The notes beneath the pieces are model-generated. The model made no database searches, had not been told where the DNA came from, and saw nothing but the letters and a program-made list of their open reading frames with translations. Below are positions 9,437 through 13,724 of a DNA stretch of 64,000 nucleotides, in pieces. Position numbers and translations under genes: made by a program. Position 1 is the first letter of the stretch. Every line of letters starts with the position of its first letter. The stretch covers positions 2,304,001-2,368,000 of the forward strand of contig CAXXDV010000001.1 in assembly GCA_963674745.2 (NCBI GenBank). The letters run 5' to 3'. This stretch comes from Desulfosudaceae bacterium (GTDB lineage: Bacteria > Desulfobacterota > Desulfobacteria > Desulfobacterales > Desulfosudaceae).

Positions 9437-10087
9437 TCAGACAATCACCATCCGTTTAACGGCTTTAACGACTTCTTCAGGGTCATCTATCACCTGGAGG
9501 ATATCGATGTCATTGGGTGATATTCGTTTCTCGTCGAGGAGTTGTTCTTTTATCCAGTCGATCAGCCCGGACCAGTAATCCGTTCCCACCAGAATCACCG
9601 GCAGCGGTTTAATCCGCCTTGTCTGGATCAGGGTCACGGCCTCAAATAATTCATCAAGGGTGCCGAATCCGCCGGGCATGATGATGTAGGCCTGGGCGTA
9701 TTTTATGAACATGACCTTGCGGATAAAAAAATATTCAAACTCCTGCGTGATATTGGCAAAAGCATTGGGCTTTTGCTCAAAAGGCAGGACGATATTCAAA
9801 CCGACTGATCGGCCGTTTTTTTCCGCGGCCCCTTTGTTGGCCGCCTCCATGACGCCGCCGCCGCCGCCGGTGATTACGGCAAATCCGTTTTGCACGAAAA
9901 GGCCGGCAATTTCTTCCGTAGTTTTGTAGACCGGGGAATCCGGTTGTATGCGGGCGGACCCGAAGATGCTGACTGCCGGTCCGATATCATGAAGCGCCTC
10001 GACACCGTCAACAAACTCGCCCATAATTTTGAATATCCGCCAACTCTCCTCCAGCTTGAAGTCATCAATTAAAAACTGCCTTTTCAT
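9437..10087 (-). CDS. LOG family (TIGR00730-type Rossmann fold) nucleotide phosphoribohydrolase
   Basis: FGSAR, TGGG.GVMEAAN, FFIRK and PGGFGTLDE motifs. Confidence 0.93.
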   Translation of the reverse strand: MKRQFLIDDFKLEESWRIFKIMGEFVDGVEALHDIGPAVSIFGSARIQPDSPVYKTTEEIAGLFVQNGFAVITGGGGGVMEAANKGAAEKNGRSVGLNIVLPFEQKPNAFANITQEFEYFFIRKVMFIKYAQAYIIMPGGFGTLDELFEAVTLIQTRRIKPLPVILVGTDYWSGLIDWIKEQLLDEKRISPNDIDILQVIDDPEEVVKAVKRMVIV

Positions 10088-10129
10088 TTTGTCCTTTCCT
10101 ATAATTTTCTCGGCTCCCGGTCGAAAAGG

Positions 10130-10366
10130 TTACTTCACCCGTCACCCGCGTCCTTTCAAGCCAATGGTGACCTTGTCTTGCTCCACGATAACCGGAATCT
10201 TCCGGTTTCCATCTGAATATCTGAGCATTTCGTCCAGATTGGCCGGGTCTGCCAGGACATCAACGTAGCGTACGGAATTTCCTTTTTTCGTATACGCCTC
10301 ACGGGCCAGGGTGGTGAACGGTCAGGTGCTCTTCCCGAAGATTATGATTTGATGGTTTTGATTCAT
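10130..10366 (-). CDS. Glutaredoxin-like selenoprotein, 78 aa, with two in-frame UGA codons read as Sec15 and Sec75; absent from the ORF track
   Basis: Manual translation: MNQNHQIIIFGKST-U-PFTTLAREAYTKKGNSVRYVDVLADPANLDEMLRYSDGNRKIPVIVEQDKVTIGLKGRG-U-RVK-TAA. UGA at 10324-10322 occupies the Grx active-site position (UPFT); IP cis-Pro motif present; ATGA overlap with the PP2C stop. Confidence 0.85.
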
Positions 10367-11175
10367 AAGCTTTTATTCAGAAGACGCCCGATACGTGAAA
10401 AAATATTACGCTGCTTGTCCACGTCTTTTATCTTGAGCACAATTACCGTAATGTTATCCAGACCGCCCTTTTCATTGGCCAGATCAACCAGCTTTTTACA
10501 GGCAGCGGCCGGTTTGTCGCCCAGGGCCGTATCCAGGATAACCTCTTCTGAAATCATGTCGGTCAGGCCGTCTGAACAGAGAACGAAGGTGTCTCCGGCC
10601 AGGCCTTTCTGCTCGACAGTATCGGGCGTTACTTGAGGCTTGGTGCCCACGGCCTGGGTCAGCATATGTTTGAATTCTTCATTCAGCGGCTCACCGTCCG
10701 GGTTGGCCGCCTTGGCGGCAGAAGCGACCGTATGCAGGGTCGATATCAGTTCAATCTGATCATTACGGATTAAAAACACCGGGCTGTCACCGACATTGGC
10801 CACGATAACTGTCTTGTCAGTCAAGAAAACAGCCGAGATTGTCGTACCCATTCCCGCGTATTTCGGATTATCAGAAGCCAGGTCGAGAACGCTCATGTTG
10901 GCCAGATTAATCCCGGCCAGCAGCCGGTTGGCCTGTTTGGAAAGCCGCCGTCGGGTATCCGGTAATTCCTCGGGGTTTTTATGATCTGTAATGTTTTTGA
11001 TATAGCTCAGGATGGTCTCGGCGGCGACACGGCTGGCCACTTCTCCGGCAGCGTGTCCGCCCATACCGTCGGCTACCACATACAGCCCCAAGGCCTCGTC
11101 AATCACAAAAAAATCTTCATTGGCCTTTCTTTTTCTGCCGGTATCTGTCAGGCCCGCAGACTCAACGATAAGCAT
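10363..11175 (-). CDS. PP2C/Stp1 family Ser/Thr protein phosphatase
   Basis: TDTGRKR..NED, VADGMGGH, GMGTT, NVGDS, LCSDGL and GG.DNIT motifs. Confidence 0.96.
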   Translation of the reverse strand: MLIVESAGLTDTGRKRKANEDFFVIDEALGLYVVADGMGGHAAGEVASRVAAETILSYIKNITDHKNPEELPDTRRRLSKQANRLLAGINLANMSVLDLASDNPKYAGMGTTISAVFLTDKTVIVANVGDSPVFLIRNDQIELISTLHTVASAAKAANPDGEPLNEEFKHMLTQAVGTKPQVTPDTVEQKGLAGDTFVLCSDGLTDMISEEVILDTALGDKPAAACKKLVDLANEKGGLDNITVIVLKIKDVDKQRNIFSRIGRLLNKSL

Positions 11176-11189
11176 AAGGTGCCCTTTTG

Positions 11190-13724
11190 TTATTTGTTGC
11201 TTTGTTGTCTCTTGCTCCGGGCAGCGTCTATTTTCTGGCCGAGTGTTCTCAAGTGTTGCGCCATCTGCCCGGCTGACTGGTATCTTTGTTCCACCTTTTT
11301 GGCCATTGCCTTGTTGAGAATGGCGACCAGCGGTTTGAATATTTTGGGATTAATCTGCTGTGGGTTGGGATGGGGTTCGTTCAATATTTTGTGCATCAAC
11401 TCGGCCGGGCTGCTTCCCTTAAAGGGGACTTCTCCTGTCAGTAATTGAAACATCATGGTGCCCAGAGAAAAAATATCACTCCGGCCGTCCACTTTTTTGC
11501 CTGTAATCTGCTCCGGAGACATGTAATAGGGTGTCCCCTTGATGATGCCCGTTTTGGTCTGTGAAGAAGCCGTTATCCTGGCTATGCCGAAATCGGTTAT
11601 TTTAATTTTATTGCCTTTGATCAACATGATATTGGCCGGTTTGATATCGCGATGGACGATACCTTTCTGATGCGCGTAGTCCAGCCCTTCCGCAATGTCC
11701 GCGATGTAATCAATAACCCGACGCATGGGCAGCAGGTTTTTTTTCTTGGTATATTTGTCGAGGTCATCTCCTTCCAGGTACTCCATGGCAATGTAAGCCA
11801 GGTCCTGCTCTTCACCGGCGTCATATATGGTCACGATGTTGGGATGGGACAGGGTGCCGGCACTTTCGGCTTCCCGGAAGAATTTGGCCTTCATTTCCCT
11901 GGCTTCGTCTTCGTCGAAATCTTCGCTGAATTTGACGGTTTTAATAGCGGTCGTCCGGTTAATGCGGGGGTCCTGGCCAAGGTAGACAGTGCCCATGGCA
12001 CCTTTGCCGAGCTGCTTCATGATTTCATAGCGGCCCAGCGTGGGCCGGACGCCTGATGTACCGGCCATGTCATCGCCGCCGCTGCCGATAAAGTCGCTGC
12101 CGAACACCATGGTCTCGCTGGCCAGGTTCAGTTTTTTCTTCTTATCGGTGACGTCTTTGAACTTACTGTCATGTTGTTCGATGTAACCATATACCGCCGC
12201 TGCCTTGTTGAATTGGCGTTTGCGCTCGTAGTCCAGGGCCAGGTTGTAAAGCACGTCTTTCATTTCATCGTCGACCGGTACTTTTCTGAATTTATCAAAG
12301 GCCATATCCAGCATGCCCTGGGATTGGAAAGAGATGCCCAGCATACGGTTGGTCTGCGCGGATTCACCTTCGACCTTTTCCTTGCCCGCTTCGGTCACAA
12401 AATAATTGATGGATACAATACCGGTATAACCAACGATCAGAAGAAGAAGCGGGTAAATCACCTGAATCCAGATATTTTGCATCAGGAAAAAATAAGCCGA
12501 ACCACCGATCAGCAGGCAGACAAAAAAGAAAAAGGTAGTTCCGGCAATAAGGGCCTTCATCCTGGGAAAACCCCATGTAATCAACAACCCCAGTAATACG
12601 ATGGCGATCCCCTGGCTTTTACCGCCAAGCGGCATTTCCCGGATGAAATTCTGGTTCAAAATGGACCATATGATATTACCGCTGAAATCACCGAAGGAGG
12701 TCCCGGCCGAAACCGGCGTGCTTAAGGGGTTGGCCAGTCCCTTGGCAGAAAAGGATAGCAGTACGATTTTTCCCTTGAACAGGCGCAGGGGGATTTTATC
12801 GTTTATAACGTCAAAGAACGAGTAATGCTTAAACGCCTCATCGGAACCGATGAAGTTGATCAAAATTTCCGAAGAGGATGTCAAGGGAATGGTGATGTCT
12901 TTTAAATATATTTTATCCCCTATTTTTGCAGTGATTTCAGAGGGTTTGATGTTCAGATAGTTGGCCGCGATCACCAATGAATAGGAAGGAATGAACAAAT
13001 CGTTGAACTGATAAAACGGGCGTTCTCTTCTGAATGTGCCGTCTTGATCCGGGGCATAATTGATATGTCCCATGCCGGCGGCGGCTTTCTGGAAAGCGGC
13101 GATGGGAAGGGTGACATCACCGGATTGGGGATGCCTGAGCGGCCCGGAAGGGGCATGGCTGACGTTAATGGCCTGTGAAGCGATGACGGTGTTTTTTCCT
13201 GTTTCATCTTCTTCCGGCAGCAGGGTGTCTTTGAAAAAAACGGGTAAGATCACATTCCCTGCGTTTTTCATGGATTTTGCAAGCTTGGAGTCCCGGTCAA
13301 GATTTTCCCTGGCATCGGAAACGGCATTTAAAAAGGCCGGTGCTTTCGGGTCATCGAAAAAAGATGATTTGAAAATATCCTCCAGCCTGTCAATCTCCAG
13401 CAAACCGGCATTTTCTTCGGCCTCGCTGTAGATGATATTCAGACCGATAACAGCCGGTTTTTCCGTTGCGATTTTGTCTATACAGGCGGCGATCATTGAC
13501 CGGGGCCAGGGCCAGCGGCCGAGGTTTTCAATGGATTCATCATCAATTTCGATAATAACGACCCGGTCCGTGGCTTCGGCCTGAATTTTCAACTTCATCC
13601 AGGTGTCGTAAAGCTTCAACCCCAGCGTGTCAAAAAAATCAATGCGGATAAATGCCAGGAGTAAAAAAAGGATAGTGACCGTCAGGCCAAAAACAAGTGT
13701 GGGATTTTTTTTTATCCAATTCAT
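11190..13724 (-). CDS. Membrane Ser/Thr protein kinase with N-terminal CHASE2 sensor domain
   Basis: CHASE2 signature (IDDESI..LGRWPWPR), TM helices, then a Hanks kinase domain (GKGAMG, AIK, HRDIKPAN, DFG, GTPYYMSPEQ). Confidence 0.95.
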   Translation of the reverse strand: MNWIKKNPTLVFGLTVTILFLLLAFIRIDFFDTLGLKLYDTWMKLKIQAEATDRVVIIEIDDESIENLGRWPWPRSMIAACIDKIATEKPAVIGLNIIYSEAEENAGLLEIDRLEDIFKSSFFDDPKAPAFLNAVSDARENLDRDSKLAKSMKNAGNVILPVFFKDTLLPEEDETGKNTVIASQAINVSHAPSGPLRHPQSGDVTLPIAAFQKAAAGMGHINYAPDQDGTFRRERPFYQFNDLFIPSYSLVIAANYLNIKPSEITAKIGDKIYLKDITIPLTSSSEILINFIGSDEAFKHYSFFDVINDKIPLRLFKGKIVLLSFSAKGLANPLSTPVSAGTSFGDFSGNIIWSILNQNFIREMPLGGKSQGIAIVLLGLLITWGFPRMKALIAGTTFFFFVCLLIGGSAYFFLMQNIWIQVIYPLLLLIVGYTGIVSINYFVTEAGKEKVEGESAQTNRMLGISFQSQGMLDMAFDKFRKVPVDDEMKDVLYNLALDYERKRQFNKAAAVYGYIEQHDSKFKDVTDKKKKLNLASETMVFGSDFIGSGGDDMAGTSGVRPTLGRYEIMKQLGKGAMGTVYLGQDPRINRTTAIKTVKFSEDFDEDEAREMKAKFFREAESAGTLSHPNIVTIYDAGEEQDLAYIAMEYLEGDDLDKYTKKKNLLPMRRVIDYIADIAEGLDYAHQKGIVHRDIKPANIMLIKGNKIKITDFGIARITASSQTKTGIIKGTPYYMSPEQITGKKVDGRSDIFSLGTMMFQLLTGEVPFKGSSPAELMHKILNEPHPNPQQINPKIFKPLVAILNKAMAKKVEQRYQSAGQMAQHLRTLGQKIDAARSKRQQSNK

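Follow-up and report, generated by a model that had tools for sequence, protein, structure and literature searches.

A predicted glutaredoxin-fold selenoprotein of UXX-star family 1 with two UGA codons in a Desulfosudaceae genome

Introduction

Between a PP2C-type phosphatase gene and a LOG-family gene of a Desulfosudaceae bacterium lies a minus-strand frame that is open but for two UGA codons. The question that this locus raises is whether the frame is an intact gene in which both UGAs are read as selenocysteine (Sec; U in one-letter motifs), a gene that ends at the second UGA, or a gene in decay. The locus belongs to a 64,000-nucleotide (nt) stretch of GenBank assembly GCA_963674745.2 (contig CAXXDV010000001.1, positions 2,304,001 to 2,368,000 of the forward strand), here called the window, and positions are those of the window unless another genome or contig is named. 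A first-pass annotation, made from the letters of the window, had proposed that the frame encodes a double-Sec glutaredoxin-like protein akin to the UXX-star selenoproteins. Comparison with family models, with relatives from the same order and with a modelled fold bears this proposal out: what we call the redoxin gene is very probably intact and encodes a 78-residue glutaredoxin-fold selenoprotein of UXX-star family 1, both of its UGAs being predicted from sequence to specify Sec.

Results

The coding sequence (CDS) of the redoxin gene occupies 10130..10366 on the minus strand, with an ATG start codon at 10366-10364 and, after 78 codons, a TAA stop at 10132-10130. Its only in-frame breaks are TGA at codon 15 (10322..10324) and TGA at codon 75 (10142..10144), and the frame contains no TAA, TAG or frameshift. 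Read through, it yields a 78-residue product with the motifs IIIFGKST-U-PFT, RKIPVIV and GRG-U-RVK-stop, in which the first predicted Sec stands in an active-site motif U-P-F-T and the second near the C-terminus, followed by R-V-K and the stop. The ATG overlaps the stop codon of the PP2C gene in an ATGA at 10366-10363. Frame, UGA positions and overlap are all present as the first-pass annotation had described them. An open reading frame (ORF) list made with translation table 11 and a minimum of 40 amino acids (aa) holds no ORF in the redoxin frame and leaves a 275-nt gap where the gene sits; the sole minus-strand ORF that it lists within the interval, at 10156-10302, is in a different frame. 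A metatranscriptome contig of 234 nt, 95-99% alike, spans 10331-10564 and hence the end of the PP2C gene and the first 12 redoxin codons, an overlap that is too little to show expression of the redoxin gene. In two other RNA runs the stretch is present as contigs of unknown kind.

Family models place the product in UXX-star family 1. With U scored as C in profile searches of the protein, NCBIfam model NF041114 ("UXX-star selenoprotein family 1") is matched at 101.4 bits against a cut-off of 72 (E = 2.4e-29). The match sets residues 7-77 on model positions 1-70 of 70 and so includes the part past the first UGA, where a loss of coding conservation had earlier been named as the mark of a pseudogene. 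When the genome is searched in six frames with the same model, the gene scores 91.7 bits, the match covering model positions 1-66. The product also passes the broader Uxx_star subfamily model NF041212, with 79.0 bits against a cut-off of 66, and Pfam Glutaredoxin (PF00462), with 38.6 bits against 22.9. Across the genome there is one Uxx_star subfamily match with an in-frame TGA, and it is the redoxin gene.

An AlphaFold2 model built on 31 family sequences (mean pLDDT 90.3) has the topology β1 6-11, α1 16-27, β2 31-36, α2 41-50, β3 59-62 and β4 65-68. In Foldseek, glutaredoxins and NrdH rank as the best matches, with template modelling (TM) scores of 0.70-0.73 to 7c10/7c12, 3ic4 and 1h75, and a profile search of the PDB returns glutaredoxins at E = 1.7e-7 and no solved structure of UXX-star family 1 itself. 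Like classical glutaredoxins, NrdH and YruB, the redoxin combines this fold with a redox residue at the start of helix 1 and a cis-Pro loop. Unlike classical glutaredoxins, it has a U-P-x-T rather than a C/U-x-x-C site, and a Gly-rich tail ending in Sec replaces their C-terminal helix.

Two groups of related families were considered and set aside. UXX-star families 2 and 3 and the HUGP/GUXX-star fusion share a glutaredoxin-like domain and a Sec near the C-terminus, and membership in any of them is ruled out by partial matches far below the cut-offs (NF041211, 56.6 against 100 bits; NF047338, 46.9 against 97; NF045501, 37.8 against 325). Identity as glutaredoxin 3, YruB, mycoredoxin or NrdH was rejected on scores far under the cut-offs, with GRX_bact (TIGR02181) at 31.0 against 90 bits, NrdH (TIGR02194) at 18.5 against 85.75 and YruB (TIGR02196) at 26.7 against 88.55.

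The family is common in the order. Among 201 genomes sampled from it, the source genome included, 103 have a match over the family cut-off, and the 102 other genomes supply the relatives' set used here, which comprises 105 loci above the cut-off (L026-L055, L057, L063-L136). For 31 of these loci flanks of 1.5 kb were at hand, while the remaining 74 reach only 60 nt upstream. The codon at the first site is UGA in 99 of the 105 relatives and Cys in the other six; that at the C-terminal site is UGA in every one, with no Cys form and never TAA or TAG. Homologues had been proposed as a check on the original reading, to see whether each site carries Cys or UGA, and the relatives agree with it at both. 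Sec and Cys sharing one alignment column is the classical signature of a selenoprotein. The alignment of 31 sequences has 19 invariant columns, all of which the window protein shares: I9, G11, K12, U15, P16, T18, A21, R22, E23, V37, M47, S51, R55, P58, I60, V66, G69, G72 and U75. Identity between the window protein and any one of the 105 relatives does not exceed 65%.

A search of a collection of 5.8 billion proteins returned three relatives, all with Cys at the first site and each ending just before the C-terminal U. Because gene callers truncate the Sec forms, these three matches are uninformative on how rare the family is. The early expectation that standard gene callers would miss the gene therefore stands for plain callers, which left only truncated Cys-first relatives, but not for model-aware annotation, which can find it. 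A shorter subtype is also present among the relatives (L031, L032, L035, L037-L039, L043, L051 and others), shortened by four residues in the link from helix 1 to strand 2 and by one residue ahead of the tail (…YKDH-xY…, …GY-GGxUGV). No gene of this subtype in the first 30 loci adjoins a LOG gene.

Each UGA is followed by a hairpin resembling a selenocysteine insertion sequence (SECIS), and both hairpins that the first-pass annotation had pointed out are present. The first, GCC-CGUGA-GGC (10296..10306, minus strand), lies within the A-R-E-A codons 15 nt after UGA15. All Sec-form genes have a helix GGCY-CGUGA-RGCY over these codons past the first UGA. In the 31-sequence alignment 83.2% of cells in this helix are paired, against 25-54% when the partners are slid by 1 to 3 columns, and none of 500 shuffles matches the observed covariation. 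The innermost pair links the third base of the Ala codon with the third base of the Glu codon, both synonymous positions. It is formed by U-A in 18 sequences, by C-G in 10 and by U-G in 1, and its only breaks in the alignment are in two of the three Cys-form genes.

The second hairpin, UUUUCG-ACCGGGAGC-CGAGAA (10107..10127, minus strand), starts 14 nt after UGA75 and beyond the stop, in the untranslated interval that separates the TAA from the ribosome-binding site of the following gene. The family consensus is YCGGC-loop-GCCGR, and the window hairpin stands at the same position. Within the family the arms of this hairpin vary between genomes, in several of them completely, and yet stay complementary, as in GCGACACC/GGTGTCGC and GTCGACCA/TGGTCGAC. 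Over 105 sequences the best hairpin has a median energy of -10.6 kcal/mol and a median spacer from the UGA of 12 nt. These values come from per-sequence hairpin searches, which were used for the 3' region in place of RNAalifold; on a plain MAFFT alignment the latter recovered only four pairs, stems of different length being misaligned. In three of 31 sequences (L027, L034, L053) the simple hairpin search chose another hairpin directly after the UGA. An Rfam scan of 9900-10500 found no relevant family, only PreQ1 (E = 0.77) and sX12 (E = 1.9), which were taken as noise.

The codons that follow UGA75 bear on whether it too is decoded. In nearly all of the 105 loci the two codons past it encode G, R or K and then V, I or A, the commonest tails being GV (60), RV (19), GI (7), KV (6) and RI (5). 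All four bases occur in the third positions of these codons, and the first and second positions are nearly fixed, with G at +4 in 93 and T at +5 in 102 of the 105. Such a coding pattern implies that UGA75 is read through. A single-Sec protein, in which UGA15 is Sec, UGA75 is a real stop after 74 residues and the hairpin beyond serves to stabilise or attenuate the transcript, is by comparison very unlikely. UGA75 lies four codons from the end, such that little would be lost by stopping there; gene callers end the Cys-form relatives exactly at its position, and the codon that ends the tail is itself UGA in 41 of the 105 loci. Against a stop at UGA75 stand the coding pattern beyond it, with the stop following directly in 103 of 105 loci; the invariance of a codon that as a mere stop could equally be TAA or TAG; the SECIS-like distance of the hairpin; and the lack of a T-run after the hairpin in the window. 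Read as Sec at this site, as its context predicts, UGA would apparently mean Sec and then, nine bases later, stop in each of those 41 loci.

The genome itself (5.55 Mb in three contigs) has the machinery on which the original proposal depended. Found in it, all four over their cut-offs, are tRNA-Sec (75.1 bits), selA (607.9 bits), selB (369.8 bits, C1:1156265-1158157) and selD (368.6 bits). The selD gene has one in-frame TGA of its own, and selenophosphate synthetase SelD is here probably itself a selenoprotein; its locus (L018) is G000:C1:326061-326981 on the minus strand. A second full-length SelB-like gene (L010; G000:C3:1795409-1797292, minus strand) has an open frame of 678 aa and scores 239.9 bits against the selB cut-off of 242.25, over model positions 1-579.

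The redoxin gene is third in a minus-strand string of genes. A CHASE2-domain Ser/Thr kinase gene comes first (11190..13724; Pfam Pkinase 200 bits, CHASE2 180.4 bits), followed by the PP2C-type Ser/Thr phosphatase gene (10363..11175; Pfam PP2C_2 58.6 bits, NF033484 201.2 bits against a cut-off of 230), the redoxin gene and the LOG/TIGR00730-family gene (9437..10087; PF03641 124.1 bits, TIGR00730 144.1 bits). The overlap of the PP2C stop with the redoxin ATG suggests translational coupling. A scan of the minus strand from 10100 to 10400 for promoters and terminators found none, with counts no higher than in shuffles, and the redoxin gene is probably co-transcribed with the kinase and PP2C genes upstream and the LOG-family gene downstream.

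Elsewhere in the order a LOG gene lies directly downstream on the same strand in at least 54 of the 105 relatives' loci, some of which are cut by contig ends. The neighbours in 30 scanned loci are LOG genes, genes for the phosphotransferase system (PTS) proteins HPr or enzyme I, and PAS-GAF proteins; divergent PTS HPr or enzyme I genes lie upstream in 13 of the 30. In the 31 loci for which 1.5 kb of flank was available, no PP2C gene lies upstream, and no PP2C, kinase or ABC gene stands beside the redoxin, save for one weak ABC match. A general link between PP2C and the redoxin was rejected on this count. In one relative, L029 (G191:C13), the LOG match at about 1868-2514 in redoxin orientation is split over two frames (residues 1-76 and 76-216), which suggests a frameshift or a sequencing error. 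A fusion of a peroxiredoxin selenoprotein to a PP2C-like domain is described in a passage of the GOS paper (PMC2398784) and is a loose parallel to the coupling of redoxin and PP2C in the window.

Discussion

Our results describe a gene that the family model, the relatives and the fold identify consistently, and several features of the window copy weigh against reading it as a fully functional double-Sec gene. Its tail is U-R-V-K-stop, a U-X-X-X-stop as the first-pass annotation had read it, where 103 of the 105 relatives end U-X-X-stop. Set against the relatives, it has a 3-nt insertion ahead of the stop, and three residues stand between Sec and stop instead of the two for which the family is named. 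Only L045 (U-A-V-K) and L064 (U-R-V-V) among the relatives share this length, and both pass the family model; tail length is here treated as descriptive, the operative test of membership being the model score. The first hairpin is weak, with three G-C pairs and -2.0 kcal/mol, inside the family range of -1.6 to -9.1. In the second, the window sequence UCGAC-CGGGA-GCCGA places A opposite C where the relatives have G-C, and an alternative stem of 6 bp, closed over a 9-nt loop, reaches only -3.0 kcal/mol. Ranked by best hairpin, the window is 98th of 105. Single-sequence folding finds both UGA contexts no better than shuffled sequence (z = +0.74 and +0.80), and the hairpins are therefore visible only by comparison with relatives. 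The structural model lacks a glutaredoxin-type C-terminal helix after β4, where a short non-helical tail bears U75. Finally, the sample includes only one further genome of this genus, G129 (99% complete), and it has no redoxin gene: its PP2C gene, 72% identical, is adjacent to LOG, with roughly 100 nt of unrelated spacer between them. In L064 (G121:C44) the 3' hairpin that follows the second UGA, GCCGAC-UGUAU-GCCGGC, likewise sets A against C, and does so at the stem position where the window does. At the G129 locus (L062, G129:C1:431638-435429; about 1343-1477) the gene order ABC-LOG-PP2C is kept around the short spacer.

The absence from G129 implies that the gene is dispensable in this lineage, and loss there is the simpler reading, given how widely redoxin and LOG are paired across the order. 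Could the window copy itself then be decaying, its UGAs poorly decoded and its product a young pseudogene or a source of truncated peptides only? The extra codon in the tail, the place of the 3' hairpin at the weak end of the family and a same-genus genome in which the gene, whether lost or never present, is missing between the same neighbours would all fit such a copy. The frame, however, runs for 78 codons without a frameshift, TAA or TAG, all 19 invariant columns are kept, the ATGA coupling to PP2C is intact, and the family-model score is as high as those of the best relatives (78-103 bits). Several relatives moreover have 3' stems that are equally short, at 4-5 base pairs. Decay is on this evidence improbable, and the discussion below proceeds from an intact UXX-star family 1 gene.

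For this intact gene a model of decoding can be proposed. While the ribosome stands at UGA15, SelB carrying Sec-tRNA would bind the small hairpin that lies 15 nt further on, within the CDS. For UGA75 it would bind the hairpin starting 14 nt downstream, beyond the stop codon, and the true stop would thus fall in the spacer between UGA75 and its SECIS. A SECIS placed just past the stop codon reportedly supports Sec insertion into such tails in engineered Escherichia coli constructs.

The chemistry of the product may follow from the position of its two Sec residues. U15, at the start of helix 1 in the U-P-x-T site and opposite the conserved cis-Pro loop (Pro58), would be the attacking selenolate, and U75, on a Gly-rich tail (G69, G72, G74), would fold back as the resolving residue to form an intramolecular Se-Se bond, in a cycle resembling that of a monothiol redoxin with a tail-borne partner. 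Animal thioredoxin reductase ends in Gly-Cys-Sec-Gly, and SelL is a diselenide protein with a UxxU motif. As in these thioredoxin reductase and SelL-type centres, the protein ends in a flexible, Gly-rich tail with a Sec a few residues from its end, and by this analogy the tail suggests a mobile redox partner. The redoxin is unrelated to thioredoxin reductase and SelL in fold and size, and the Sec on its tail would have another Sec as its partner, about 60 residues distant within a glutaredoxin fold. We consider the assignment of U15 as attacking and U75 as resolving residue in a diselenide to be an evenly balanced call.

Alternatively, the same gene may serve another chemistry, in which the selenols chelate a soft metal or metalloid (Hg, As, Cu) or carry selenium or sulfur species. 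Passages of a 2026 review (PMC13188914) name metal or metalloid binding by the two selenols for the UXX-star family. Not one of the 105 loci has Cys at the C-terminal site, a pattern that redox selenoproteins do not usually show and that fits a requirement for selenium itself. However, neither the window nor the 30 neighbour-scanned loci have metal-resistance or transport genes adjoining the redoxin, and U-P-x-T on a glutaredoxin fold is a classical redox site. Metal or metalloid binding is for these reasons a tentative possibility.

A bolder scenario joins the features in which the window departs from its family. The redoxin may have been wired into the CHASE2-kinase/PP2C operon, with its Lys-extended tail and weakened SECIS in the 3' untranslated region causing UGA75 to be decoded only partly, as selenium supply dictates, to give a 74-residue single-Sec and a 78-residue double-Sec form. 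We judge this scenario most improbable. If true, the two isoforms could link Ser/Thr phosphosignalling, or the downstream LOG-family enzyme, to selenium or redox state.

The family itself has already been catalogued. In its table, the review PMC13188914 gives the motif UxxT and two Sec residues for UXX-star family 1, as "Distant Grx-like protein 1", and a listing in a 2022 review (PMC9312934) reads "Distant Grx-like protein 1, UxxT". Cited in PMC13188914 is also a Sec-containing clostridial glutaredoxin; its rows for UXX-star family 2 and the fusion, with its passage on the role of Sec, are attributed there to Haft and Tolstoy 2025, and its family-1 row to its reference 61, which is taken to be the GOS paper PMC2398784. 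A UxxT Grx-like entry with two Sec was not found in the searched passages of PMC2398784 and PMC5029168. A full-text literature search on the family names returned the two reviews only, and found no experimental work on the family. Given that the family is in NCBIfam and in two reviews, reading the window gene as a member is a correct call rather than a discovery. In common with UXX-star family 1 the gene has the U-P-x-T site, the invariant C-terminal Sec, the two hairpin positions and the frequent LOG neighbour; to this family it adds a member that differs from most in its longer tail, its weak 3' hairpin and its lineage-specific PP2C neighbour upstream.

For annotation, the locus is one where reading the gene correctly needs two UGA recodings and a SECIS past the stop codon. 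A C-terminal Sec without a Cys counterpart in 105 loci may help studies of Sec decoding, and the 41 of these loci in which UGA would serve first as Sec and then as stop offer a natural display of how position relative to a hairpin decides the meaning of UGA. Family members found in cultivable organisms are candidates for a biochemical approach to the family's function.

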